Virus record (IMG/VR): IMGVR_UViG_2565956633_000006
DNA from: a virus
Lineage: Duplodnaviria; Heunggongvirae; Uroviricota; Caudoviricetes
Strand: one strand, 5' to 3'
DNA: 13,400 bases
Each line of letters opens with the position of its first letter. Positions within the stretch are counted from its first letter, which is position 1. The notes beneath the pieces were generated by a model that was not told the DNA's origin, ran no database searches, and saw nothing but the letters and a program-made list of their open reading frames with translations. Positions 1 through 13,400 of this stretch are shown piece after piece. The position numbers and the translations under genes were made by a program.

Positions 1-1284
1 TTACAGACTTCTGGAAGGTTGCGCAGCTCTTACAACACGCGGTTGATCTTCCGCGGCGTCTTCCAGCGCACTTAAATCACGGTCTTTCACTTCTGGCATT
101 TTCAGCGCAGAGATTAAACCAATCACTGAATATGCCATGATCATAATGGCGATCGGATACCAGGATTCCGTCATGGTGCAGAAAATACCCGCCAGGATAG
201 GACCAAAACCGGAAGCGATAAGACCACCAATTTCTTTAGAAATAGCCATCCGGGTAAAGCGGTTTTTACAGCCGAACATTTCTGCCATGGTAATATTTTC
301 CAGAGCAAATAATCCCAGCACCGCACAGTTATGAATCACAATCAGTGCAACCATAATGGTGCTCGGGGCATAGCTTTTATCTACGATGATAGAAAGCATT
401 GGCCATGCCAGCACAATCGCGGAGGTATTCATAATAATATACGGGATCCGGCGACCAATTTTATCGGATAACCAACCAAGGAACGGAATGGTCATAAAGC
501 CGAGAATCGAACTGATCATCAATGCATCTGTTGGAATTGCTTTGTTAAACAATAACGTCTGCACTAAATAGCCCGCAAGGAAAGTCTGAATTAAACCTGA
601 GTTACCCGCCTGACCAAAACGCAGCCCTGTTGCCAGCCAGAAGGATTTGCTCTGGAACATGCTACCAGCAGGTGCAGGTTTTGCTGTCGGTTGGTTGCTG
701 TCGTTAACCTTCTCAAAAACCGGGCTTTCTTTCAGATTCATACGCAACCAGATAGCAAAGACCATCACGACAACGCTCGCCAGGAACGGTATACGCCATC
801 CCCACGCCAGCAGTTCCTCTTTACTGAGAATGAAGAACATAAAGGCCCAGATTGCCGTTGCGCTTAAAGTTCCGCAGTTAGTTCCCATAGCCACAAATGA
901 GGAGATAATTCCGCGCTTACCTTTTGGCGCATATTCCGCCAGCATCGTACCGGCACCGGAAATTTCCGCACCTGCACCCAATCCCTGAATAATACGCAGC
1001 GTCACCAGCAAGATAGGGGCAAAAACACCAATCTGTGCATAGGTCGGTAACACACCAATTAAGGTGGTACAGATCCCCATCATGGTGATGGTAATAAAGA
1101 GCACTTTTTTACGCCCTATTCTGTCGCCCATTTTGCCGAAAATAAATGCTCCGACAATACGCGCCACATAACCTGCACCGTAGGTTCCCATTGCCAGAAT
1201 TAACGCCATTGCCGTTGATGATTCAGGAAAAAATATTTCATGAAACACTATCGCTGCGCCGAGCGAATATAACTGGAAATCCAT
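1..1284 (-). CDS. ydfJ: MFS (metabolite:H+ symporter family) transporter, N-terminally truncated at the prophage junction
   Basis: 427-aa ORF with many hydrophobic helices and GRK/R motifs typical of MFS. The product starts at MDFQLYSLG, aligning with the conserved (W)YDF..YG motif of MHS transporters, so about 25 N-terminal residues are missing. ATG at 1282-1284 has no convincing Shine-Dalgarno upstream. Stop at 1-3. Confidence 0.8.
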   Translation of the reverse strand: MDFQLYSLGAAIVFHEIFFPESSTAMALILAMGTYGAGYVARIVGAFIFGKMGDRIGRKKVLFITITMMGICTTLIGVLPTYAQIGVFAPILLVTLRIIQGLGAGAEISGAGTMLAEYAPKGKRGIISSFVAMGTNCGTLSATAIWAFMFFILSKEELLAWGWRIPFLASVVVMVFAIWLRMNLKESPVFEKVNDSNQPTAKPAPAGSMFQSKSFWLATGLRFGQAGNSGLIQTFLAGYLVQTLLFNKAIPTDALMISSILGFMTIPFLGWLSDKIGRRIPYIIMNTSAIVLAWPMLSIIVDKSYAPSTIMVALIVIHNCAVLGLFALENITMAEMFGCKNRFTRMAISKEIGGLIASGFGPILAGIFCTMTESWYPIAIMIMAYSVIGLISALKMPEVKDRDLSALEDAAEDQPRVVRAAQPSRSL

Positions 1285-1888
1285 AATTCACAGGTGTTTT
1301 TTCCCATCCTGTGGTTTCCTTGGCGTTTTCTAGGTTTTTTCAGATAGTTGCATTTTTTAAAAAGCATCCTAAGTTCGATCTCAGTGTCTATCTGGGGCCT
1401 ATTTCTGTCCCATATATGCCCCAAAAAAAACTCCCCAACAGATAAGTAGTTTTTTCATGGATTTATGCGTAAAATCAAGAACGGCTGGAAATCATTCAAT
1501 ACTCACACTATCGAAAAATTTACCAGCCAACCGCAGCACGTTCTTGCATAAGGCGTGTCTGCGGTTTTTCAACTATTCAGATACATCACTCCCATCACAT
1601 TCATTCCTCCGCATCAAAGGCATATAGGCTATATCACCTTGATATTTTTATTTTTCAGATAAAAACTGTTATCTATGTATACTTTTAAACCCAATCCGTG
1701 TAGAGTCTCTGCATAAGATAGTTTGCAGTTGCCGCTTCAGCTTGCGCCATAAACCGCCTGATTTTTGCTGCCACCTGTTAGCATTCCTGTATACCTGAAA
1801 CGACAATGTTTATCTACGAACTTTAAGAACACCCAAGATAAAAATTGTCAACTATATCATATATAACACATTACTAATTCGAGGCTAT

Positions 1889-2002
1889 ATGAACAGCATA
1901 CTGATAATCACATCTCTCCTTATCATATTCAGCATTTTTAGTCATGCCCTAATAAAATTAGGGATTGGCATATCCAATAACCCAGACAAAACCGATGTAT
2001 AA
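1889..2002 (+). CDS. Hypothetical 37-aa hydrophobic small protein ([37 protein letters not shown])
   Basis: ATG at 1889 preceded by GAGG at 1881-1884; single predicted transmembrane helix followed by a polar tail; stop TAA at 2000-2002. Below the ORF-track length cutoff; found by reading the DNA. Confidence 0.25.
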
Positions 2003-2070
2003 GTCAACATATCCTGAATCAGACATACAATATCGCAATGAAAATCAATAATATTTTAAGGAATATCTTC

Positions 2071-2304
2071 ATGAAATCAAAAGACACCCTAAAGTGGTTC
2101 CCTGCGCAGCTTCCTGAAGTAAGAATTATCCTAGGGGATGCTGTAGTGGAAGTAGCAAAACAGGGAAGACCTATCAATACCAGAACATTGCTTGATTACA
2201 TTGAAGGAAACATAAAGAAAAAATCATGGCTGGATAACAAAGAATTATTACAAACAGCGATATCAGTTCTTAAAGACAACCAAAATTTAAATGGTAAAAT
2301 GTAA
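2071..2304 (+). CDS. ydfK: Small prophage protein YdfK (YnaE paralog, cold-shock associated), 77 aa
   Basis: ORF 2038..2304; internal ATG at 2071 (MKSKDTLKWF...) has AAGGA 7 nt upstream, so 2071 is the likely start. Confidence 0.75.
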   Translation: MKSKDTLKWFPAQLPEVRIILGDAVVEVAKQGRPINTRTLLDYIEGNIKKKSWLDNKELLQTAISVLKDNQNLNGKM

Positions 2305-2620
2305 TATAATAAACTTACTTTTTTATCATTTTTCCACTTTAACAACATTTTGCTCCACTTTTCCACGACCAAACAACTTGAAATCTGGTTAAAATAACAC
2401 GCAACACTATTCTTCTTCCTTGAGTCCGCCCGGAACTCGAAAAACAAACCGAGTTAAAGCCATTTTTCACAAAATCGATTTTGGGTCTCACCAAAATTAC
2501 GGGGTTGCATACGCATTCGTTTATTTTCGAACGTGTACATACAAATATGCACAAAAATAATCAAAATTATTTTCTGAGATGCATTATGATATGAACACCA
2601 ATTTCGTATAGAGTCTCACT

Positions 2621-3211
2621 ATGTCTCGAATTTTTGCTTACTGTCGGATATCAACGCTGGATCAGACCACCGAAAATCAACGCCGGGAAATCGAAAGTGC
2701 AGGTTTTAAAATCAAACCTCAGCAAATAATCGAAGAACACATTAGCGGCTCAGCAGCAACCAGTGAGCGTCCTGGTTTTAACCGGTTGCTTGCTCGCCTG
2801 AAATGTGGTGATCAATTGATTGTGACAAAACTGGATCGCCTTGGTTGTAATGCAATGGATATCAGGAAAACAGTGGAACAACTGACCGAAACAGGTATCA
2901 GAGTGCATTGCTTAGCATTGGGGGGCATTGACCTGACCAGTCCAACAGGAAAAATGATGATGCAAGTAATTTCAGCAGTCGCTGAATTTGAACGAGACCT
3001 TTTACTTGAACGCACTCATTCCGGGATAGTAAGAGCCCGGGGCGCAGGGAAACGTTTTGGTCGACCACCTGTGTTAAATGAAGAACAGAAACAGGTGGTA
3101 TTCGAACGAATTAAGTCAGGTGTAAGTATAAGTGCCATTGCCCGGGAATTCAAAACCTCGCGGCAAACCATTTTAAGAGCCAAAGCAAAACTTCAGACAC
3201 CTGACATATAA
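2621..3211 (+). CDS. pinQ: Serine recombinase / DNA invertase (Gin/Hin/Pin family), 196 aa
   Basis: N-terminal [20 protein letters not shown] catalytic-serine motif and C-terminal helix-turn-helix ([23 protein letters not shown]), typical of Pin/Gin/Hin invertases. Confidence 0.95.
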
Positions 3212-3308
3212 AAAATAATCTCGGTGTGAGATGCTTTACGTCTTCCAAGCCACCTTCCTTGCCGTAAATGGAAAGATACATCTAATTATAGAATTTATAT
3301 GTTTTACC

Positions 3309-3884
3309 CTACGGCAGTGCTGGCCATTCAATATCCTGTGCAGTTGACGTATCAACACGGTTCAGCAATACCCGATACTTTTTCCATGCTTCCAGCAACG
3401 AGATTTCTTCCTCCGTTGCAATTTCCAGATCTGCAGCATCCTGAAGCGGCGCAATATGCTCACTGGCTACCTGCATCAGGCTGTTTTTTGTTTCTTCCGC
3501 CTCCCGGATCCGGAACAGTTTTTCTGCTTCCGTATCCTTCACCCAGGCTGTGCCGTTCCACTTCTGATATTCCCCTCCCGGCGATAACCAGGTAACATTT
3601 TCCGGTAACGGACCGAGTTCAGAAATAAATAACGCGTCGCCAGAAGCCACGTCATAAACCGTTTTACCCCGATGATCTTCAACGAGATGCCACGATGCCT
3701 CATCACTGTTGAAAACAGCCACGAAGCCTGCCGGAATATCTGGCGGTGCAATATCGATACTGTTTGCTGGCAGACCTGTATGAGGCGGAATATATGCGTC
3801 ACCTTCACCAATAAATTCATTAGTTCCGGCCAGCAGATTATAAATTTTTATGGTCCGTGGTTGTTCACTCATTCTGAATGCCAT
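3309..3884 (-). CDS. tfaQ: Tail fibre assembly protein (lambda Tfa-like), 191 aa
   Basis: Tfa-family product; start ATG overlaps the stf stop as TAATG at 3882-3886, indicating translational coupling. Confidence 0.9.
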
Positions 3885-4801
3885 TATGCAAGCCTCACAA
3901 TATAGTTAAATGCGATGTTTTTGACGGTGTTTTCCGCGTTACCAGCAGCGTTAACGGTGATGGTATGTCCATGTGAACCAATCGCAACGGAGTGCGTATG
4001 AGCACCAATACCGACAGTATGTGCGTGTGCACCTGCGCTTGCAGCAGTACCCGATACAGAGTGCGTATGAGCGCCTGCAGAAGAAGTGTTAACACTGTAT
4101 TTAGAATAATCAGGTGATCCACTTCCCGGAGCACCACTGGAACCACCTGAAACAAATGTCATCGAATGGGTATGTGCACCGGCTGAAGCAGCCGTACCGC
4201 TAACACTATGGGTATGCGCACCAGTGTTATTCGTGGATTTAGTGCCGTAATCAAACGACGATGTGGTTTTCGTCCCCAAATCCGTACTGGATACGCTGGC
4301 GCTGTGGGTGTGTGATTTAATGCCGTCCTGTTCCTGAGACAATACGGCTCGATCACTGGCGGGCTTGCCCTTAATCGTCCAGCCACGCATATCAGGGATC
4401 ACGCCTGACGGATAAGCGGCTGCAAGTTTCGGGTAAGCAGATTTGTCAAAAGTCTGCCCCTGCATCAGGGCATAACCAGACGGAACGGTATCTGATGGCC
4501 ACGGGATTGGTGCACCGACTGGATAAAACTCTGCAGGAGGATGAGCCGAGGTGTAAAGCTGCGCCCACGGCGACCAGTTTGCGTCGGTCGTATCCCGTCG
4601 TGAACGAATAAATGCCGGAGCATGAGCACCGCTTGTACCACTCCAGCCGATGAGTAACTCACCTTCGCCAACGGCTGTCATCCCTTTCAGGTGAATGATA
4701 TTTCCATACGCTGTTGGATATCCGTTGTTATACACCTCGTATAACTCAAGACCTGTTGCCCCCTGCGTATTGTCTGTCAGCGCGGTTACCCGCGTATCGT
4801 T
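3884..4801 (-). pseudogene. stfQ: Side tail fibre protein, C-terminal fragment (lambda Stf-like)
   Basis: Open frame from the stop at 4802-4804 down to the stop at 3884-3886, with no ATG near the 5' end (first start-like codon is GTG at 4733-4735, without an SD). Product carries repeated GAHTHS...[10 protein letters not shown] His-rich motifs and ends ...[11 protein letters not shown] as in lambda Stf. Confidence 0.85.
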
Positions 4802-4851
4802 TCATCGGCGCGGGCAATGGCAGCATCGAACAGGTTATCGGAATCAGCCAC
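4786..4851 (-). pseudogene. Remnant of lambda FII-like head-tail joining gene (first 21 codons only)
   Basis: GGGAGG followed by GTG GCT GAT TCC GAT AAC CTG TTC GAT GCT GCC ATT GCC CGC GCC GAT GAA ACG ATA CGC GGG TAA, i.e. [21 protein letters not shown], matching the lambda FII N-terminus ([21 protein letters not shown]) as I recall it. Start is GTG here, and the frame stops where the stf-derived sequence begins. Confidence 0.6.
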
Positions 4852-4862
4852 AGCGCCTCCCG

Positions 4863-5258
4863 TTATTGCATTCTGGCCAGGCCATGTTCTGTCATTTCGG
4901 CTGCCACACCGGCAGAGACACGAAACGCCGTTCCCGGCAGCACAAATGCCACAGGCTCATCCCGCGTGGCGTGAAGTGCATCAGTATGCAGCGTCACCAG
5001 TGCCACGACCGTGACCAGAGCAGCCGTATCAATCACGGTATCCGGCTGCGCTGATACCACCTCATTTTCATGTCCGGTCAGCGCATTTTCCGGGCTGACA
5101 GATGTGTCCTGACCGGCAGCGTCATCCGTGTCATCAAGCTCCTCTTCCAGCTCTGCCACACGGAGCACCAGTTCTTCTTTCGTCCCCGTCAGGCTGACAT
5201 CACGGTTCAGTTGCTCACCCAGCACCTGAAGACGGGCAATCAGTTCATCTTTCGTCAT
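4863..5258 (-). CDS. Lambda FI-like DNA packaging protein, 131 aa
   Basis: Product from the internal ATG at 5256-5258 (MTKDELIARLQVLGEQLNRDVSLTGTKEEL...) matches lambda gpFI; strong SD (GGAGGAG) upstream. The longer ORF-track start at 5297 lacks an SD. Confidence 0.85.
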   Translation of the reverse strand: MTKDELIARLQVLGEQLNRDVSLTGTKEELVLRVAELEEELDDTDDAAGQDTSVSPENALTGHENEVVSAQPDTVIDTAALVTVVALVTLHTDALHATRDEPVAFVLPGTAFRVSAGVAAEMTEHGLARMQ

Positions 5259-5279
5259 GGACTCCTCCACAGAGAGAAA

Positions 5280-5297
5280 ATGGCCCCGAAGGGCCAT
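5280..5297 (-). terminator. GC-rich hairpin between the E remnant and FI (ATGGCCC-TTCG-GGGCCAT on the minus strand, then TTTCTCTCT)
   Basis: Perfect 7-bp stem with a 4-nt loop, followed by a U-rich tract on the coding (minus) strand; could act as attenuator or mRNA stabiliser. Confidence 0.35.
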
Positions 5298-5299
5298 GA

Positions 5300-5866
5300 T
5301 TACGCCAGTTGTACGGACACGAACGCATCAGGATCAGCCAGCAGCATCAGCGGTGCTGACTGAATCATGGTGAACTCACGCGCCGGATCGCCGGTGGTCA
5401 CCCAGTTTTTCGGGTAGCGGGCAGAGGCGTTAATACCTTCGCGCTGTGCGTCCGCATCCTGAATGCAGCCATAGGTGCGCAGACCGCGTGCCTGAGTGTT
5501 CCCCAGCACCATCGTGTTGTCCGGCAGGAAGTTCTTTTTGACGTCGTTTTCCACGTACTGTCCGGAATACACGACGATCGCCGTATCGCCATACATCCCC
5601 TTATAGGACACCGCTTCGCCCAGGTCTTTTACCGCTGTCTCCAGCTCGGAATTAGAGCCGCGACGGGTATCCAGCTTCTCCTTGACGGCTTTGAAGGAAC
5701 GGAACAGCGCCCAGCCTTTCGGATCAAACACGATGATATTCACCACGCCGCTGGCGTTCAGCGCGTAGGCTTCGATATCGTCGGTCGGGTCATACGTGGA
5801 CTTGTCACGCTTGCTCCACTCCGTGCCGCCGGACTGCGTGATGTTGTTCGCCGCACTGCGGCCCAT
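5300..5866 (-). pseudogene. Major capsid protein (lambda gpE-like), C-terminal remnant of about 188 codons
   Basis: Product ends ...NTMVLGNTQARGLRTYGCIQDADAQREGINASARYPKNWVTTGDPAREFTMIQSAPLMLLADPDAFVSVQLA, matching the C-terminus of lambda E; the 5' half is absent and replaced by the Nu1-like gene. Confidence 0.85.
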
Positions 5867-6372
5867 ATCAGTTCATCCAGCGCGGCTGCTTTGTTCATGG
5901 CTTTGATGATATCCCGTTTCAGGAAATCAACATGTCGGTTTTCCAGTTCCGGAAAACGCCGCTGCACCGACAGGGGGATCCCGTCGAGAATACTGGCAAT
6001 TTCACCTGCGATCCGCGACAGCACGAAAGTACAGAATGCGGTTTCCACCACTTCAGCGGAGTCTCTGGCATTTTTCAGCTCCTGTGCGTCGGCCTGCGCA
6101 CGCGTAAGTCGATGGCGTTCGTACTCAATAGTCCCTGGCTGGAGATCTGTCTCGCTGGCCTGCCGCAGTTCTTCAACTTCCCGGCGCAGCTTTTCGTTCT
6201 CAATTTCAGCATCCCTTTCGGCATACCATCTTATAACGGCGGCAGAGTCATAAAGCACCTCATTACCCTTGCCACCGCCTCGCAGAACGGGCATTCCCTG
6301 TTCCTGCCAGTTCTGAATGGTACGGATACTCGCACCGAAAATGTCAGCCAGCTGCTTTTTGTTGACTTCCAT
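5758..6372 (-). CDS. nohA: Terminase small subunit Nu1 homolog with altered C-terminus (fusion to out-of-frame capsid-gene sequence)
   Basis: First ~168 aa (MEVNKKQLADIFGASIRTIQNWQEQGMPVLRGGGKGNEVLYDSAAV...) match lambda Nu1 nearly residue for residue; the tail (..WAAVRRTTSRSPAARSGASVTSPRMTRPTISKPTR) is read from E-derived DNA in another frame. Confidence 0.85.
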   Translation of the reverse strand: MEVNKKQLADIFGASIRTIQNWQEQGMPVLRGGGKGNEVLYDSAAVIRWYAERDAEIENEKLRREVEELRQASETDLQPGTIEYERHRLTRAQADAQELKNARDSAEVVETAFCTFVLSRIAGEIASILDGIPLSVQRRFPELENRHVDFLKRDIIKAMNKAAALDELIWAAVRRTTSRSPAARSGASVTSPRMTRPTISKPTR

Positions 6373-6620
6373 TGTTCATTCCACGGCCAAAAACAGAGAA
6401 AGGAAACGACAGAGGCCCAAAAGCTCGTTTTCAGCACCTGTCGTTTCCTTTCTTTTCAGGGGGTATTTTAAATAAAAACATTAAGTTACGACGAAGAAGA
6501 ACGGAAATGCCTTAAACCGGAAAATTTTCATAAATAGCGAAAACCCGCGAGGTCGCCGCCCCGTAACCTGTCGGATCGCCGGAAAGGACCCGCAAAATGA
6601 TAATAATTATCATCTGCATG
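6373..6620 (-). other. Lambda-type cos packaging site (cosN 12-nt cohesive end at 6550..6561, with cosB toward nohA and cosQ on the other side)
   Basis: Reverse complement of 6481-6563 reads GGGGCGGCGACCTCGCGGGTTTTCGCTATTTATGAAAATTTTCCGGTTTAAGGCATTTCCGTTCTTCTTCGTCGTAACTTAA, nearly identical to the lambda left end as I recall it, including cohesive end GGGCGGCGACCT. Confidence 0.8.
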
Positions 6621-6760
6621 TCACAACGTGCATCTACGCCATCAAACCACGTCAAATAATCAATTATGACGCAGATATCGTATTAATTGATCTGCATCAA
6701 CTTAACGTAAAAACAACTTCAGACAATACAAATCAGCGACACTGAATACGGGACAACCTC

Positions 6761-6994
6761 ATGTCAACGAAGAACAGAACCCGCAGAACAACAACCCGCA
6801 ACATCCGCTTTCCTAACCAAATGATTGAACAAATTAACATCGCTCTTGAGCAAAAAGGGTCCGGGAATTTCTCAGCCTGGGTCATTGAAGCCTGCCGCCG
6901 GAGACTGTGCTCAGAAAAAAGAGTTTCTTCTGAAGCAAACAAAGAAAAGAGTGACATTACTGAATTGCTCAGAAAACAGGTCAGACCAGATTGA
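6761..6994 (+). CDS. ynfO: Small ribbon-helix-helix-like protein, 77 aa (lambda right-end ORF homolog)
   Basis: Basic N-terminus (MSTKNRTRRTTTRN) followed by IRFPNQMIEQINIALEQKGSGNFSAWVIEACRRRL, which has the beta-strand/helix/helix pattern of RHH (Arc/CopG) DNA-binding domains; sits beside cos as in lambda. Confidence 0.75.
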   Translation: MSTKNRTRRTTTRNIRFPNQMIEQINIALEQKGSGNFSAWVIEACRRRLCSEKRVSSEANKEKSDITELLRKQVRPD

Positions 6995-7051
6995 AGCAAT
7001 TTAGATAATCGTGCAGACTACGCCCCCTCATATCACATGGAAGGTTTATCT

Positions 7052-7462
7052 ATGGATCAGGTAGTCATTTTTAAACAAATATTTGATAAAGTTCGAAACG
7101 ATTTAAACTATCAATGGTTTTATTCTGAGCTAAAACGTCACAATGTCTCACATTACATTTACTATTTAGCCACAGAGAATGTTCATATTGTATTAAAAAA
7201 TGATAATACAGTGTTATTAAAGGGCCTAAAAAACATTGTGTCTGTCAAATTTTCAAAGGATAGGCATCTTATAGAAACGACCTCTAATAAGCTGAAATCC
7301 AGAGAGATCACATTTCAGGAATACAGAAGAAACCTTGCTAAAGCAGGAGTTTTTCGGTGGGTTACAAATATCCACGAACAAAAAAGATATTACTATACCT
7401 TTGATAATTCATTACTATTTACTGAAAGCATCCAGAAAACTACACAGATCTTACCACGCTAA
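7052..7462 (+). CDS. ydfO: DUF1398-family protein (YbcV/YdfO family), 136 aa
   Basis: ORF 7037..7462; second ATG at 7052 ([14 protein letters not shown]...) has GGAAGG 7 nt upstream and is the likely start. Confidence 0.8.
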
Positions 7463-7470
7463 ACCATAAC

Positions 7471-7499
7471 GTCCGGCTTCTCTCACTCCTGAGCCGGAC
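7471..7499 (+). terminator. Hairpin downstream of ydfO (GTCCGGCT ... AGCCGGAC)
   Basis: 8-bp GC-rich inverted repeat with a 13-nt loop, 9 nt after the ydfO stop; no clean U-tract, so function uncertain. Confidence 0.3.
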
Positions 7500-7613
7500 T
7501 GCATTGGTTTAATAAAAACCATCAACAATTGTGATTTAGATATTCGGAACCATTCAAATATAACAAAACCCCGTAAAAACGAGGTTTATGGATAAATTTT
7601 ATTATTGAATACA

Positions 7614-7787
7614 TCAGATTAAATTAATCTTGACATCATAGCTTTCAAGACCCGTCATTTTTTCCCGTGCGGTAAACTGAATACTGGTAACTTCTTTCCC
7701 GGTCTTTTTCTTAAGTTCAATAATTTTTTTTGTTATATATTCAGAAATATCTGCTTCTGCTTTTGTTTTTAAGTTTTCAATATTCAT
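7614..7787 (-). CDS. gnsB: GnsB-like small protein, 57 aa (MNIENLKTKAEADISEYITKKIIELKKKTGKEVTSIQFTAREKMTGLESYDVKINLI)
   Basis: Absent from the ORF track (under 60 aa); translated by hand from the minus strand. ATG at 7785-7787 with GAGGAA upstream; product resembles GnsA/GnsB. Confidence 0.8.
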   Translation of the reverse strand: MNIENLKTKAEADISEYITKKIIELKKKTGKEVTSIQFTAREKMTGLESYDVKINLI

Positions 7788-7958
7788 CATTTCCTCTTTT
7801 AGTCTGTTATGACTTTCCAGTTACACAGTAAGTCGATTATATGGTGCAAACGTGTAAAAGATAAGATGAAACATCGCAATAATCAACATACGATAGTCTA
7901 AATTTTACACAAACAGACAAAGAAAATTTTCCTGAATTATCAATACAATAGCATCAAA

Positions 7959-8114
7959 TCAACTCAAGAGCCTTATTGCTGCTTCCAGAATTTCTTCTGA
8001 AGTAACATGTCGATCCGCGGCTACATAAATGACTTTATGATCTCCGGTCAGAGATGGAAACCCTGCGGCCATTACAGTAAGGTGTGTTTTTTCGCCATTT
8101 GGATATTCACGCAT
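7959..8114 (-). CDS. ynfN: Small prophage protein YnfN-like (51 aa from ATG 8112-8114); start uncertain
   Basis: ORF track gives 7959..8231 (90 aa, TTG start). In-frame ATGs lie at 8189 and 8114; the 8114 start has GGAG about 11 nt upstream. A strong minus-strand terminator at 8233-8253 sits immediately upstream of the longest form. Confidence 0.5.
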   Translation of the reverse strand: MREYPNGEKTHLTVMAAGFPSLTGDHKVIYVAADRHVTSEEILEAAIRLLS

Positions 8115-8232
8115 GATGGTGTTAACTCCAGTCATCGCTGGCACTACCACTGCAGGTTCAGAGTTAAAAAAAACTATGATTTTTTTCATGATGTTACCGT
8201 AGTATGTGAGTATCCATCGAATAGATACCAAG

Positions 8233-8253
8233 CAAAAAAGCTCCCGAAGGAGC
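8233..8253 (-). terminator. Rho-independent terminator (GCTCC-TTCG-GGAGC followed by TTTTTT on the minus strand)
   Basis: Perfect 5-bp GC stem, tetraloop, then six U residues on the minus-strand transcript; about 205 nt downstream of the cspI stop. Confidence 0.6.
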
Positions 8254-8460
8254 CTTCATTTTCACTTTTTTAAATCCAACGACAGACGGCTGGCATTTAA
8301 GTATTGTGAAATATTATCAAATGTAATCATCATTGATTTACAAAAGATACATTTTGCCCCGAAAGGATTCATGTCAGAAACATCAAAAGATGATGTTCTA
8401 TACTGGGAACCATGACAACACGGGCATCTAAAGTGAATATGGTTTGTAATATTGTCTACC

Positions 8461-8673
8461 TCAAAGCGCCACTACATGAACAGCGGCAGGACCTTTAGGT
8501 CCGTTCTCAATACCAAATTCAACTTCCTGATTCTCAGTTAATGTTTTGAAATCGTTGCTCTGAATTGCTGAGAAATGGACAAACACATCTTTGCTGCCAT
8601 CTTTCGGCGTGATGAAACCAAAACCTTTTTCAGGGTTAAACCATTTCACTAAACCAGTCATTTTGTTAGACAT
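8461..8673 (-). CDS. cspI: Cold-shock protein CspI (CspA family), 70 aa
   Basis: [38 protein letters not shown]... with RNP1 (KGFGFI) and RNP2 (VFVHF) motifs; long leader region upstream. Confidence 0.95.
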
Positions 8674-9037
8674 AATTATTACCTTTTGAAGAAATTAGCC
8701 CTTGGGCAGAATGGTCCGAAAAAAAAATATCAGAGAGAAAAACCAACAAGGAAATCTCAAGAGGTACAAATAATAAAATTATAACAATGACTGCTTCAGA
8801 TAAATTTGTAACAAACCAGAACACCATTAACGCATGATTAACCACCCATAGCAAGGATTACTTTTGTAAAGAAAAACACAGCAATGAAAGAATAGCTTTA
8901 TTTATTAATAATAACGTGTCATTCTGATTAAGACCTTTTATCTTACCCTTAAGATTTCAGGAATTTTGGCTCATGGAAGAGTCCTTTTTATTTAAATTTT
9001 ACATTCCGCGATGTAAATGTTCCGATTTAATATTACC

Positions 9038-10061
<1,024 letters not shown>

Positions 10062-10065
<4 letters not shown>

Positions 10066-10373
10066 ATATATTTATGATGAGGACGCTCGTGCTTATTGGC
10101 AGGATTTTCAATCTTAAAGGAGTACTGATGCTGCAGATAAGACTCAACTTTTTCTGACAATTTTTCTGCTACTTCCAGGAAGACTTGCCGGACGCTCCTT
10201 CTGGCTGCTGCCTCATAAAACTCCAGCGCAGCTCCTTCAACACGGTCCATGGCGACATCCAGGTCAAAAATTTCACCGTCAAAGCGTTCTTTGTCCTGTA
10301 AGGCTACAGTTACCGTAACTTTATTCTCAAAATTACGGACTCCTTTCACAACCAGTTCATAGTCTTGAGTCAT
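10062..10373 (-). CDS. ydfR: Uncharacterised protein inserted between holin and endolysin (DUF1327 family), 103 aa
   Basis: Intact ORF, 4 nt after the holin stop and overlapping the endolysin start (ATGA); acidic, predicted soluble. Confidence 0.8.
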
Positions 10374-10377
10374 TGGA

Positions 10378-10593
10378 TTACTCTCCTCTCGCAGCCTTAC
10401 GCCTGTCTTCTTTAATCTTGAAATAAAGATTTGTCAGATACGTCAGCAGGCCAAAAACCAGGCTACCCAGCACACCGATTGCAGCCCACTGTGACGGAGT
10501 TACTTTATCGAGTAACTGCAATGCCCAGAAACCAGCATTACCCGCCGATGTGCCATAGGCAACACCTGTTGTTAACTTATCCATTGATTTCAT
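10378..10593 (-). CDS. essQ: Class II holin / pinholin (phage 21 S-like), 71 aa with dual-start motif
   Basis: [71 protein letters not shown] resembles S21; Met1-Lys-Ser-Met4 dual start; GAGG SD upstream of the ATG at 10591-10593. The longer track ORF (to 10668) is upstream read-through. Confidence 0.9.
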
Positions 10594-10812
10594 ATCCTCA
10601 CCCCGATGTACACGGATGGTGCAATATGTTTGAAAAGATCGGAGTCTACGGGGTAGTTTTGACAGCACACGTTGTTCTCAACGGCGCTAAAAAAACATAC
10701 ACATTAAAAATGTGGGTAATTATTTTGAAAGAAAGTCATATATAAAATAATAATACGAGAAATGTTTTCATATTTAGTGTACTGTATACGGCCATTTATA
10801 CAGGAAAAGCCT

Positions 10813-10983
10813 ATGTCAGAACGTAAAAACTCAAAATCACGCCGTAATTATCTCGTTAAATGTTCCTGCCCAAACTGCACCCAAGAGTCAGAACACAGTT
10901 TTTCAAGAGTACAAAAAGGTGCCCTTTTGATCTGCCCTCATTGCAACAAAGTATTCCAGACAAATCTTAAAGCTGTAGCCTGA
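10813..10983 (+). CDS. ynfU: Small zinc-ribbon protein, 56 aa (MSERKNSKSRRNYLVKCSCPNCTQESEHSFSRVQKGALLICPHCNKVFQTNLKAVA); possibly ynfU
   Basis: ATG at 10813 with AGGA 7 nt upstream; two Cys pairs (C-x-C-P-x-C and C-P-x2-C) form a putative zinc ribbon; basic N-terminus. Symbol assigned from memory of a Qin small zinc-binding protein, not verified. Confidence 0.5.
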   Translation: MSERKNSKSRRNYLVKCSCPNCTQESEHSFSRVQKGALLICPHCNKVFQTNLKAVA

Positions 10984-11040
10984 TTGATTTTATTAGTAAC
11001 AAGTATTTTTTATATTTTAATAATATATTTAAAGCAGATA

Positions 11041-11065
11041 ATAAAAAACCCGCCTGAGCGGGTTT
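11041..11065 (-). terminator. Rho-independent terminator (AACCCGC-TCAG-GCGGGTT followed by TTTTTTAT on the minus strand); weakly bidirectional
   Basis: 7-bp GC-rich stem with tetraloop and a U-tract on the minus-strand transcript; downstream of cspB and convergent with the zinc-ribbon ORF. Confidence 0.6.
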
Positions 11066-11346
11066 GAGATTGTGGTGCTTTTTGTGGGAGTCATCCACTT
11101 ACGCACTTTGTTTTGCCATGCCAGCAGTTAGCTTCTGCTGTAAAACTATTCATGCAGCAAACCTGCACTTCACCACAATGGTTAGCATACTTTTCCTGAT
11201 TAAGATTTTGCCAAATATGCTAGCCATTGTTTCATGTATTGGACCTCCTTACTTTTTATTAAAGAGATCCAATATTCACTACTCTGTCCGTATCTCTACT
11301 CAGGCATCAGCCTTCTTCGTTATCGTATACAGACGAGCGATGAATT

Positions 11347-11562
11347 TTAATCAGTAATGATGACATTTGCTGCTGCAGGACCTTTAGCACCACTCTCTAT
11401 AGAGAAGGTAACCTTTTGACCTTCAAATAAGGTTCGATAATTATCATTCTGAATCGCAGAAAAATGCACAAACACATCTTTACTACCATCAACAGGAGAA
11501 ATAAAGCCGAAACCTTTATCAGCGTTAAACCATTTTACTAAACCAGTCATTTTATTTGACAT
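11347..11562 (-). CDS. cspB: Cold-shock protein CspB (CspA family), 71 aa
   Basis: [38 protein letters not shown]...; AAGGA SD 7 nt upstream of the ATG at 11560-11562. Confidence 0.95.
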
Positions 11563-11862
11563 TCTACATTCCTTAACTTGAGCCTTTCGGCATAAATGGT
11601 TTGCATAACAGAAACGACTTCGTACTTAATTGGAGAGACTCAAAGAAGGAATAAGTGAATAACACCTGAAATGAGAACTGCTTTAGTAAACTACTTCGTA
11701 TATCGTCTGTTCTTCAAACCGACGCAATCATTAACGCATAGTTGAACATATGAAGCAATGTTTATTTTAGACATCCAGCCATCTTCAACCCCATCAAAAA
11801 ACTATAGCTTTCTTCAGGAACGTGTGTATAGTGCGCCAAGTTATCAGTATTAAGGAATTTTT
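11563..11862. promoter_or_regulatory. Divergent cspB/cspF control region (promoters and long 5' leaders)
   Basis: 300-bp AT-rich spacer between divergently oriented csp genes; contains a repeated ACTTCGTA motif (11615-11626 and 11691-11705) in the expected cspB leader. CspA-family genes are known to carry long regulatory 5' UTRs. Confidence 0.5.
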
Positions 11863-12075
11863 TTGTCCCGTAAAATGACAGGAATTGTCAAAACCTTTGA
11901 CGGCAAAAGCGGCAAGGGTCTTATCACCCCATCCGATGGTCGTATCGATGTCCAGCTTCATGTCTCAGCGCTCAATCTCCGCGATGCAGAAGAAATTACC
12001 ACCGGATTACGCGTGGAATTTTGCCGGATAAATGGTCTGCGTGGCCCTTCAGCTGCCAATGTTTACCTTTCATGA
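11863..12075 (+). CDS. cspF: CspA-family paralog CspF, 70 aa, with degenerate nucleic-acid-binding motifs; probable TTG start
   Basis: [38 protein letters not shown]...; start codon at 11863 is TTG with AAGGA 6 nt upstream; RNP1/RNP2 aromatic residues are replaced (KGKGLI, VQLHV). Confidence 0.9.
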
Positions 12076-12361
12076 GCTATATTAAAGCTTTAATTTCAGG
12101 CCCCATCGGATCACACATGGAGAGTTTTTATGAATAACCCCGTCTGTCTTGATGACTGGTTGATTGGCTTTAAAAGCTTATGCTGTACTTTGGCCGTAAT
12201 AGCTCTGCTAATAATATAATAAGCAGACTCATTGTGTTTAGGGACATTGTACTGGAAGAAAACATTTTAAACATCAGGCAAATAACCAAGTCACCAGCTA
12301 AATAATAAGTTAACAGACATGAGTCCCGGGATGAGATTCAACATTACCATTGCCCCATTTA

Positions 12362-12400
12362 AAGCACAAAACCCGCTCATCAGCGGGTTTTCTACTTTTT
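12362..12400. terminator. Bidirectional rho-independent terminator (AAACCCGCT-CATC-AGCGGGTTT with T-rich flanks on both strands); candidate tR'
   Basis: 9-bp stem; the plus strand continues TCTACTTTTT and the minus-strand transcript continues TTTTGTGCTTT. Confidence 0.6.
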
Positions 12401-12436
12401 CTTAACGTCGGGTATACAAAGCCCATCGTTGAAAAA

Positions 12437-12465
12437 ATTTTATCCATATTTTTTGAAAAATGCAA
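12437..12465 (-). promoter_or_regulatory. Candidate sigma70 late promoter (pR'-like): -35 TTGCAT, 17-bp spacer, -10 TAAAAT, on the minus strand
   Basis: Hexamers read from the minus strand just downstream of the quuQ stop; a terminator hairpin lies about 40-60 nt downstream, as in lambdoid pR'/tR' units. Confidence 0.35.
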
Positions 12466-12496
12466 ACATCATGTCGCCATCTTCAGCAAAAATCAT

Positions 12497-13249
12497 TTAT
12501 CTCGTCACCTTCCTCAATTGCGCTTCCGCGTATGCTTCTTCCTGCCAGCACTTTGTTACCAGTTTACCAATGACGTCCGCATACCCCTTATACCACTGAT
12601 AATCGGTCAGGTCTGGTACCAGCTTCTGGACATGACGTCGTGCCAGCGTGGTCGGTAAACGACTAAACCGGTTTCCATTACAACGCCCACAAATCTTATA
12701 TACCGGTACGCCATGAAACCGGGTTCTTTTTTCATCCAGAACAATCCCTTTACCCTTACACCCTCTGCACGCTGTGCTGGCTTCGCCCTTACCATGGCAA
12801 TGCTGACATAGTTCCTTCACCCATTCTTCCTTGATTACAGATTCCCCGCGTCTGTAGTGTTTCACCACTTCGCGCAATACATTATAAAATCCCGTACCTG
12901 AACAATGCTCACAGCGAGCCTTACTTGCCGCAGACCTGGAGTAATCAGCAAAGGCAAAACTCACGAGGTAAGGAATAATCTGTAACCGGATTTCTTCACT
13001 CAATTTGTTCAATGTCGGGTTATCCAGTGCCATCGCGTAATTTAGCAGGCCTTCAATCGCAAACTGAGGGTCCTGAACACCAACTTTTGCCAGAAATAAG
13101 GCCAACCCAAGTGGTGCTTTCGACTGCACCATCCCCTGCGCTGCCATTACATCCGTAATTGTTAAACAACCGGTGCCTGTCGCTGGAGCGTCATCGCTCA
13201 ATTTTGGAGATTTTGGGGAGTAATATTTTGGTAAGGCTTCAAGGTTCAT
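12497..13249 (-). CDS. quuQ: Late-gene antiterminator Q-like protein, 250 aa
   Basis: Cys-rich zinc-binding region (CEHCSGTG...CQHCHGKG...CRGCKGKG...CGRCNG) typical of phage Q antiterminators; ATG at 13247-13249 has GGAG 7 nt upstream. The track start at 13279 is TTG with no SD. Confidence 0.9.
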   Translation of the reverse strand: MNLEALPKYYSPKSPKLSDDAPATGTGCLTITDVMAAQGMVQSKAPLGLALFLAKVGVQDPQFAIEGLLNYAMALDNPTLNKLSEEIRLQIIPYLVSFAFADYSRSAASKARCEHCSGTGFYNVLREVVKHYRRGESVIKEEWVKELCQHCHGKGEASTACRGCKGKGIVLDEKRTRFHGVPVYKICGRCNGNRFSRLPTTLARRHVQKLVPDLTDYQWYKGYADVIGKLVTKCWQEEAYAEAQLRKVTR

Positions 13250-13262
13250 GCTCGTTCTCCAC

Positions 13263-13400
13263 TTACGCCAGTACGCCAATTGCCAGCGCGCGATCGATAA
13301 AACGAAATATCAGCTCCAGTTGGGAGCCATACTTATCTTCAAATGCCACTGTATCCGTATGCAGCTCGTTGTGATGCTTTCTGCACAAAGGCAACACAAA
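13263..13400 (-). CDS. ydfU: 3' end of a ydfU-like prophage gene (partial; 5' end beyond window)
   Basis: Open minus-strand frame to the window edge ending ...FVLPLCRKHHNELHTDTVAFEDKYGSQLELIFRFIDRALAIGVLA with stop at 13263-13265, 13 nt upstream of the quuQ start. The C-x2-HH-x3-H pattern is HNH-like. Confidence 0.6.
   Translation of the reverse strand, partial: FVLPLCRKHHNELHTDTVAFEDKYGSQLELIFRFIDRALAIGVLA

Follow-up and report, generated by a model that had tools for sequence, protein, structure and literature searches.

The window, by which we mean the whole 13,400-nucleotide stretch of DNA analysed here, begins with part of the transporter gene ydfJ and continues as a cryptic prophage (Table 1). 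The transporter part is a single open reading frame of 427 codons, designated ydfJ', which opens with MDFQLYSLGAA... and ends with a stop codon at positions 3 to 1 of the minus strand. Both the gene order from ynfT to ydfT and the near-identity from the ydfJ junction inward place the remainder among Qin-type prophages. When the whole window was compared with annotated Qin regions, 91 to 97% of it was covered at 99% identity or more, with agreeing annotations. The full 13.4 kb was found in one piece in no complete RefSeq E. coli genome, the best match covering 97% in three to four pieces. Inverted repeats of at least 14 nt, as would delimit an invertible segment served by pinQ, were absent from positions 2300 to 5400.

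Table 1. Features of the window and the evidence by which each was assigned.
Feature	Position	Strand	Basis
ydfJ' (MHS-family MFS transporter, codons 29-455 plus stop, frame open)	1..1284	minus	ORF list and translation
att core (overlap region) TTATGGATTTC, 11 bp exact	1276-1286	minus	four-way alignment; imperfect identity ~1273-1290
Native ATG of ydfJ codon 29 (Met29), earliest start available to the remnant	1282..1284	minus	inside the core common to attB and both junctions
In-frame TGA from prophage DNA, two codons 5' of Met29	1288..1290	minus	frame translation ...GKKHL*IMDFQLY
Prophage arm adjoining the core	1287..1424		conserved in three otherwise different lambdoid prophages at the ydfJ site
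Qin-type cryptic lambdoid prophage, runs off the window	1287..13400		99% identity and synteny with annotated Qin regions
ynfT	1889-2002	plus	Qin gene order
ydfK	2071-2304	plus	Qin gene order
pinQ	2621-3211	plus	Qin gene order
tfaQ	3309-3884	minus	Qin gene order
Tail-fibre remnant, nohA, ynfO/ydfO, gnsB, cspI, lysis genes, cspB/cspF	after tfaQ		Qin gene order
ydfT (Q antiterminator)	12497-13279	minus	Qin gene order

The remnant and its full-length counterpart

An uninterrupted ydfJ is found in strain PapRG-06-5 (L001 4001-5368), where rspA, rspB, ydfJ and ydfI are contiguous and the gene encodes 455 amino acids. The N-terminus of this intact protein reads MTIEKHERSTKDLVKAAVSGWLGTALEF-MDFQLY..., with ...WLGTALEF preceding Met29, and the reading frame in the window is shorter by exactly 28 N-terminal residues. 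Over the part that remains, ydfJ' is 98.8% identical to the uninterrupted gene and its product carries a single amino acid difference, L40I. The first-pass annotation had proposed a prophage/host junction at about 1285 within a transporter gene of the MHS family, leaving an N-terminally truncated product, and both proposals are borne out. Ungapped identity with the uninterrupted allele stops at 1286, which sets the host/prophage boundary at 1286/1287, and a 1-nt indel, GAATT(T)ATGG, stretches the similarity to 1290, so that no uninterrupted alignment crosses the boundary. A figure legend in an earlier study describes the insertion of Qin into the 5' end of ydfJ and the loss of both the promoter and the 28 N-terminal codons (PMC6379469), and RefSeq labels the same 1284-nt interval a pseudogene, 'incomplete... 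missing N-terminus', in a K-12-like genome and in other prophage-bearing genomes. Of the genomes whose match with the window ends at 1290, all nine that were sampled (PapRG-06-5 and eight more, each with an empty site) had an intact 1,368-nt ydfJ of 455 codons for amino acids, located directly beside rspB or annotated as full length.

Profile searches assigned the 427-aa product to the TIGR00883 subfamily with 453 bits, above the curated cutoff of 443.45; the intact 455-aa YdfJ scored 462.9 bits and covered profile positions 1 to 400. The window product scored 130 bits against Pfam MFS_1, and far under the cutoffs of ShiA, ProP and all other equivalog-type models. As had been noticed at first reading, the truncated frame begins at a conserved family motif: MDFQLY opens at the D-F of E-[WF]-x-D-F, and the profiles start earlier. 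Residue 2 of the window protein aligned with profile position 37 in ShiA, 40 in ProP, 37 in PRK10406 and 7 in TIGR00883, and the ShiA, ProP and PRK10406 models begin 36 to 39 residues ahead of the truncation point. The segment that precedes the motif in the family is therefore absent from the window product.

Intact YdfJ, searched by sequence against the PDB, gave zero matches at E<=1e-10, so the limits of the first transmembrane helix (TM1) were set by profiles and hydropathy. The hydropathy of intact YdfJ, taken to mark TM1, climbs from about residue 14 to 17, and the truncated product starts at residue 29. The lost 28 residues would thus comprise a cytoplasmic tail and the first half, approximately, of TM1.

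Expression and allelic variation of the remnant

We examined the region 5' of the remnant for signals that could support its expression. The DNA beyond the boundary is AT-richer, as the first-pass annotation had remarked, with a GC content that changes from 46.8% (1-1284) to 37.4% (1287-2037), or to 40.4% in the stretch next to the junction (1287-1400). The absence of a Shine-Dalgarno motif, also pointed out there, was confirmed: AGGA, GGAG and GAGG are all missing from the 20 nt 5' of the ATG (GGAAAAAACACCUGUGAAUU). On the 5' side of the AUG, a small hairpin, CACAGG...CCUGUG, stops 4 nt short of it. A consensus scan found no sigma-70-like site on the minus strand from 1285 to about 2050 (about 770 nt); the totals of the promoter and terminator scan were near chance expectation, and a scan of this kind cannot exclude a promoter. 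At the uninterrupted locus, rspB and ydfJ are separated by a gap of 57 bp that has neither a promoter-like nor a terminator-like site, which suggests co-transcription of rspAB and ydfJ. Intact ydfJ thus probably depends on the rspAB promoter. With the rspAB-side upstream DNA lost and both the Shine-Dalgarno motif and a promoter-like site absent, poor expression of the remnant is plausible.

Whether the remnant is decaying was assessed by comparing 17 prophage-bearing, and hence truncated, alleles with 9 intact ydfJ alleles. Sixteen of the 17 truncated alleles retain an open frame, and many encode proteins that match the intact allele exactly, so that decay is not visible at this level. Pairwise pN/pS among truncated alleles ranged from 0 to 0.08, with the exception of the window against strain S1, where a value of 0.31 comes from only two differences. 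Variants private to truncated alleles numbered 28 synonymous and 12 nonsynonymous, well under the approximately 76% nonsynonymous expected of private variants under neutrality. In addition, an RNA-seq study of K-12 counts ydfJ among its differentially expressed genes (bioRxiv 2024.09.21.614188), so some transcript exists, and the phage late genes and ydfJ' have the same orientation. All of these observations would suit a 427-aa product that is still made, whether its message starts at an unrecognised promoter within the AT-rich arm or arises by read-through from the late genes of the phage, and that is useful enough to keep the remnant under selection. We nevertheless hold this explanation to be improbable.

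The comparison of coding and non-coding divergence speaks against it. In the same strain pairs, the junction-side non-coding prophage DNA differs by 0.2 to 0.8%, whereas the synonymous sites of ydfJ' differ by about 5%; the adjacent prophage DNA is thus 6 to 25 times less diverged. The two main allele groups differ only at window positions 55 to 1018 and are nearly identical from 1019 inward. Low divergence of the prophage alongside high divergence of ydfJ' means that most of the allelic divergence arose before the attached prophage copy or independently of it, and the low pN/pS is therefore uninformative on selection after truncation. Recombinational spread or independent integrations could lie behind the gap between allele and prophage divergence.

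The distribution of variants also leans toward relaxed constraint. Singletons on truncated alleles comprised 14 synonymous and 11 nonsynonymous changes, against 49 synonymous and 1 nonsynonymous among variants shared between the truncated and intact groups, and the EC6563 allele carries an extra frameshift. Variants private to intact alleles (6 synonymous, 3 nonsynonymous) did not differ significantly in ratio from those private to truncated alleles. The counts are compatible with relaxed constraint. A useful product would, moreover, have to do without half of TM1, including the residues before the conserved E-x-x-D-F motif, and be made from a message that has neither the Shine-Dalgarno motif nor the promoter-like site looked for above.

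We see equally slight prospects for ydfJ' being alive in either of two other ways, as a Met29-started 11-helix MFS fragment kept for some function, or, in strains whose PPydfJ phages (the prophages that reside in ydfJ) are competent for excision, through a reversible excision that would switch the rspAB-ydfJ sugar-acid locus on and off. The open frames and the small number of nonsynonymous private variants are explained more simply by a prophage spread that was recent or recombinational. In K-12, intQ is inactive and excision of Qin was not detected (PMC3105296), so the split of the gene is effectively permanent in that strain.

The attachment core and the origin of the truncation

The boundary coincides with a short sequence, TTATGGATTTC, that is identical in attB, at the window junction and at the integrase-side junction of a K-12-like prophage, and that occurs once in the window against a chance expectation of 0.01. 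Read in the orientation of ydfJ, attB is ...GCGCTTGAATT TATGGATTTC CAGTTATATT..., the integrase end is ...GCGCTTGAATT TATGGATTTC AAGAGTCATG..., and the window end is ...CACCTGTGAAT TATGGATTTC CAGTTATATT.... A search of the 13.4-kb window found neither a second copy of the core nor the 5' fragment of ydfJ. As the first-pass annotation had anticipated, both lie at the other prophage end, and we located them beside rspB in the K-12-like genome. In that genome, rspB is followed by the native 57-bp spacer, by codons 1 to 31 of ydfJ, and then by phage DNA and a pseudogene of a tyrosine-type integrase; the 5' fragment would encode MTIEK...LEFMDFKSHAC*. In strain S1, the far end has an excisionase gene followed by an integrase gene cut by IS1, and this integrase end has been rearranged by the IS1. 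The window itself contains one end of the prophage, and for the second copy of the core and for the integrase the evidence accordingly comes from related genomes only.

The extent of the core was also estimated with a 300-bp attB probe. In thousands of genomes the two halves of the probe overlap, at probe positions 137/140 to 155, by 16 to 19 bp. This overlap indicates that the host sequence is intact, with none of it lost, and its length agrees with the 18-19 bp att defined for PPydfJ prophages (PMC8112680). The same study sequenced attP of PPydfJ-R, from O26:H11 strain 11368, from a PCR product (PMC8112680).

The core bears directly on the start codon of the remnant. It carries ATG-GAT-TTC, which encodes Met29-Asp30-Phe31 of intact ydfJ. 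The first-pass annotation had held that a new ATG arose when phage and host recombined at the junction, the start of the frame being a by-product of their fusion. The position of the codon gives this idea some appeal, as no more than 3 nt separate it from the last base common with the uninterrupted allele, and the frame cannot be extended further upstream. However, ATG-GAT-TTC is already present in the uninterrupted gene, and the ATG lies inside the 11-bp core common to attB and both junctions; the proposal is refuted, and we regard any version of it as very unlikely. In the prophage DNA, a TGA stands in frame where the uninterrupted allele has TTG-GAA-TTT (L-E-F). Met29 is therefore the earliest possible start, and a replacement N-terminus encoded by the phage is ruled out.

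To find how widely the junction is distributed, positions 1 to 2400 of the window were compared with a collection of 5,426 complete E. coli genomes. The transporter part was matched in every one of the 5,426 and is annotated as 'MHS family MFS transporter YdfJ'. The entire 2.4 kb (ydfJ, ynfT and ydfK), that is, the Qin-type end, was present at 99% identity in 1986 of the 5426 (~37%). Other classes of match end at 1564, 1550 or 1423, and a large class ends at 1290. The uninterrupted attachment site, recognised by the 300-bp probe matching in one piece, was found in 2009 of the 5426 genomes (~37%).

At least three distinct lambdoid prophages interrupt ydfJ at the same base: the Qin-type element, that of O157:H7 ATCC 43889, whose cargo includes a DinI-like gene and three DUF1076 (NleG-type) genes, and that of the avian strain GPEC1354, in which the tail-fibre region is complete. 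An alignment of the window, K-12-like, ATCC 43889 and GPEC1354 junctions shows that the initial ~138 bp of phage sequence (1287-1424) are conserved in all three elements, which diverge beyond this point. By lambda convention this segment would be the P arm of attR; the lambda attP arm on the tail/b-region side is about 160 bp. A search for integrase arm-type repeats between 1240 and 1900 yielded only two-copy families of 9 to 20 nt, such as TTTTTCAGATA at 1336 and 1651, which are probably due to chance.

An origin of the truncation by deletion or IS-mediated rearrangement would fit the frequency of IS elements and rearrangements in these prophages (IS1 at the integrase end of S1, IS2 beside the K-12-like integrase pseudogene), but it is refuted, and hardly conceivable, given a breakpoint base identical across prophages with different cargo, a short core duplicated at both ends with the complementary 5' fragment kept, a host sequence left complete as judged from the overlapping probe halves, and a junction free of IS elements.

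The arrangement fits ordinary site-specific recombination by a tyrosine integrase, in which attP of the phage pairs with an attB located in ydfJ. The crossover would fall inside the core, 11 bp exact and about 16-19 bp when imperfect identity is included, across ydfJ codons 28 to 31. It would split the gene such that codons 1 to 28 and a copy of the core stay at the far end of the prophage, next to rspB and the integrase, and the side represented in the window keeps the core and codons 29 to 455. The native Met29 codon lies in the core, and for this reason the 3' fragment remains readable as a frame of 427 codons with an ATG start. The remnant lacks the N-terminal 28 residues and would also have lost its natural upstream DNA and its own ribosome-binding region, and the phage contributes no substitute end: its only share is the in-frame TGA, with upstream DNA that is unrelated and richer in AT. 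These three losses, without a substitute from the phage, make a non-functional pseudogene the most likely state of the remnant. We therefore consider, with a probability of roughly 0.93, that positions 1250-1330 contain an attR-type junction, on the tail-fibre side, where a cryptic lambdoid prophage of the Qin type entered the 5' end of ydfJ by tyrosine-integrase recombination, and that ydfJ' is most likely a remnant pseudogene.

Relation to other prophages and integration sites

The junction and the truncation have already been published and annotated in RefSeq, and are a known property of the Qin/PPydfJ integration site; ydfJ is listed as an integration site of Qin and other lambdoid phages (PMC3032704; PMC2608844). 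In K-12, and in about 60% of complete E. coli genomes, the junction accounts for the pseudogene status of ydfJ. It further marks ydfJ as a much-used hotspot of lambdoid integration, at which STEC acquire type III effector genes. What the present analysis corrects is the origin of the remnant's ATG, a native Met29 codon preserved by the att core. Because the core preserves it, gene callers go on predicting a plausible-looking "transporter" of 427 aa, in reality a truncated fragment, and the chief relevance of the ydfJ junction, with little beyond, lies in correct annotation.

Among transporters, YdfJ resembles the ShiA, ProP and KgtP-type MHS proteins (TC 2.A.1.6), in that it scores above the TIGR00883 cutoff and the E-[WF]-x-D-F of TM1 aligns; unlike them, the window product has nothing before the D-F of this motif. 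Among integration events, those of e14 and phage 21 in icd, of integrators into tRNA genes and of Rac in ttcA are likewise site-specific with a short duplicated core (PMC6379469; PMC3105296). These elements bring a substitute gene end, which leaves the target functional or with a variant terminus, whereas the phage side of the window offers only an in-frame stop. Restoration of the e14/icd type is thus precluded at ydfJ, where the TGA stands in frame and an upstream start is impossible.

The closest relative is the K-12 Qin prophage with its ydfJ pseudogene. It has the same junction base, core and gene order (ydfI-ydfJ' / ynfT-ydfK-pinQ-tfaQ...), is 99.0% identical over positions 1 to 2400, and its published loss of 28 codons and the promoter (PMC6379469) fits the window. 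In contrast to K-12, the ydfJ' allele of the window differs at 17 of 1284 nt, with L40I as a private change, and the remnant of the head/tail deletion between tfaQ and nohA is longer. The PPydfJ prophages of STEC and EPEC (O157:H7, O26, O111, O177) also have attB inside ydfJ (PMC8112680) and share the conserved ~140-bp arm adjoining the core. They differ in cargo: PPydfJ phages carry type III effector genes (nleG/DUF1076, nleC) and may form tandem clusters, whereas the window carries ynfT, ydfK and pinQ.

Two groups of ydfJ' alleles

We compared the transporter remnant ydfJ' between prophage-bearing strains. The alleles of the window and of strain S1 differ from those of K-12 and EC26 at 15-17 sites, and these differences are synonymous throughout, except for one change at window position 1251 that is private to the window. 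Fixed differences between the two groups are confined to window 55-1018. The junction-proximal 270 bp of ydfJ' and the following 2 kb of prophage (window 1019-3400) diverge by only 0-0.8% between the groups. This near-identity, together with the restriction of the fixed differences to 55-1018, suggests a recombination breakpoint near window 1018-1054, and the pattern also suggests that the prophage end and the adjoining segment of ydfJ' spread as one piece.

The substitution at 1251 (plus-strand A to T) was found in none of the other alleles among the 26 compared. It replaces Leu40 with Ile, which is the sole amino-acid difference between the window remnant and the commonest YdfJ sequence. The ydfJ' of strain EC6563 (NZ_CP095856.1; positions 11-1293 of locus L014) is frameshifted as well as truncated, having lost 1 nt close to its 3' end, at about gene position 1245. 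This was the only extra disruption in the 17 truncated alleles sampled.

Prophages at the ydfJ site in other strains

None of the complete RefSeq E. coli genomes gave a one-piece match to the whole window. The genome closest to window 1-2400 was that of S1 (NZ_CP010226.1), with 99.9% identity. Its prophage integrase is interrupted by IS1 (27923-29700 of the S1 locus, L003), and the integrase end joins a fimbrial region (fimA/usher, ydeR/ydeQ), not rspB. The interrupted integrase and the fimbrial genes in place of rspB indicate an IS1-mediated rearrangement at the far prophage end. In O157:H7 ATCC 43889, a prophage occupies the same ydfJ site as that of the window. Just inside its junction (7416-9820 of locus L005) lies a DinI-like gene, together with three DUF1076 (NleG-type effector) genes in tandem. 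This prophage illustrates virulence cargo delivered through the ydfJ att site.

Hairpins around ydfJ

An inverted repeat, CACAGG / CCTGTG (window 1289-1313), lies directly next to the 11-bp att core on the phage side. In ydfJ'-sense RNA the repeat is predicted to fold into a hairpin ending 4 nt 5' of the AUG (fold z-score -2.2). The repeat could be a site for a recombination protein or a chance occurrence.

At the uninterrupted ydfJ locus (L001), a strong terminator-like hairpin (3967-3994; 12-bp stem and T run) separates ydfJ from ydfI, just beyond window position 1. Given this hairpin, ydfI is probably not co-transcribed with ydfJ, and prophage insertion in ydfJ need not be polar on ydfI.

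pinQ, tail-fibre and cold-shock regions

The serine invertase gene pinQ (window 2621-3211) is intact. No inverted repeats of at least 14 nt were found flanking the adjacent tail-fibre genes when window 2300-5400 was searched, and pinQ is therefore without a local inversion substrate. According to a 2025 paper (PMC12529663), the P segment of prophage e14 is a target on which PinQ works in trans.

Features of the prophage in the window
Feature	Position	Strand	Remarks
IS009 (RF02111)	3343-3541	-	full-length Rfam match, 221 bits (gathering score 117)
Tail-fibre fragment	within 3884-5300		283 aa; in tfaQ-nohA remnant
ORF	4863-5297		144 aa; in tfaQ-nohA remnant
cspA-type thermoregulator 5'-UTR (RF01766)	8434-8820	-	112 bits; covers cspI
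cspA-type thermoregulator 5'-UTR (RF01766)	11331-11723	-	159 bits; covers cspB

The IS009 match sits within the tail-fibre-assembly gene tfaQ. Between tfaQ and nohA (window 3884-5300), the window has a longer head/tail deletion remnant than K-12, and related genomes vary in how much terminase, capsid, FI or portal sequence they retain as fragments in this interval.
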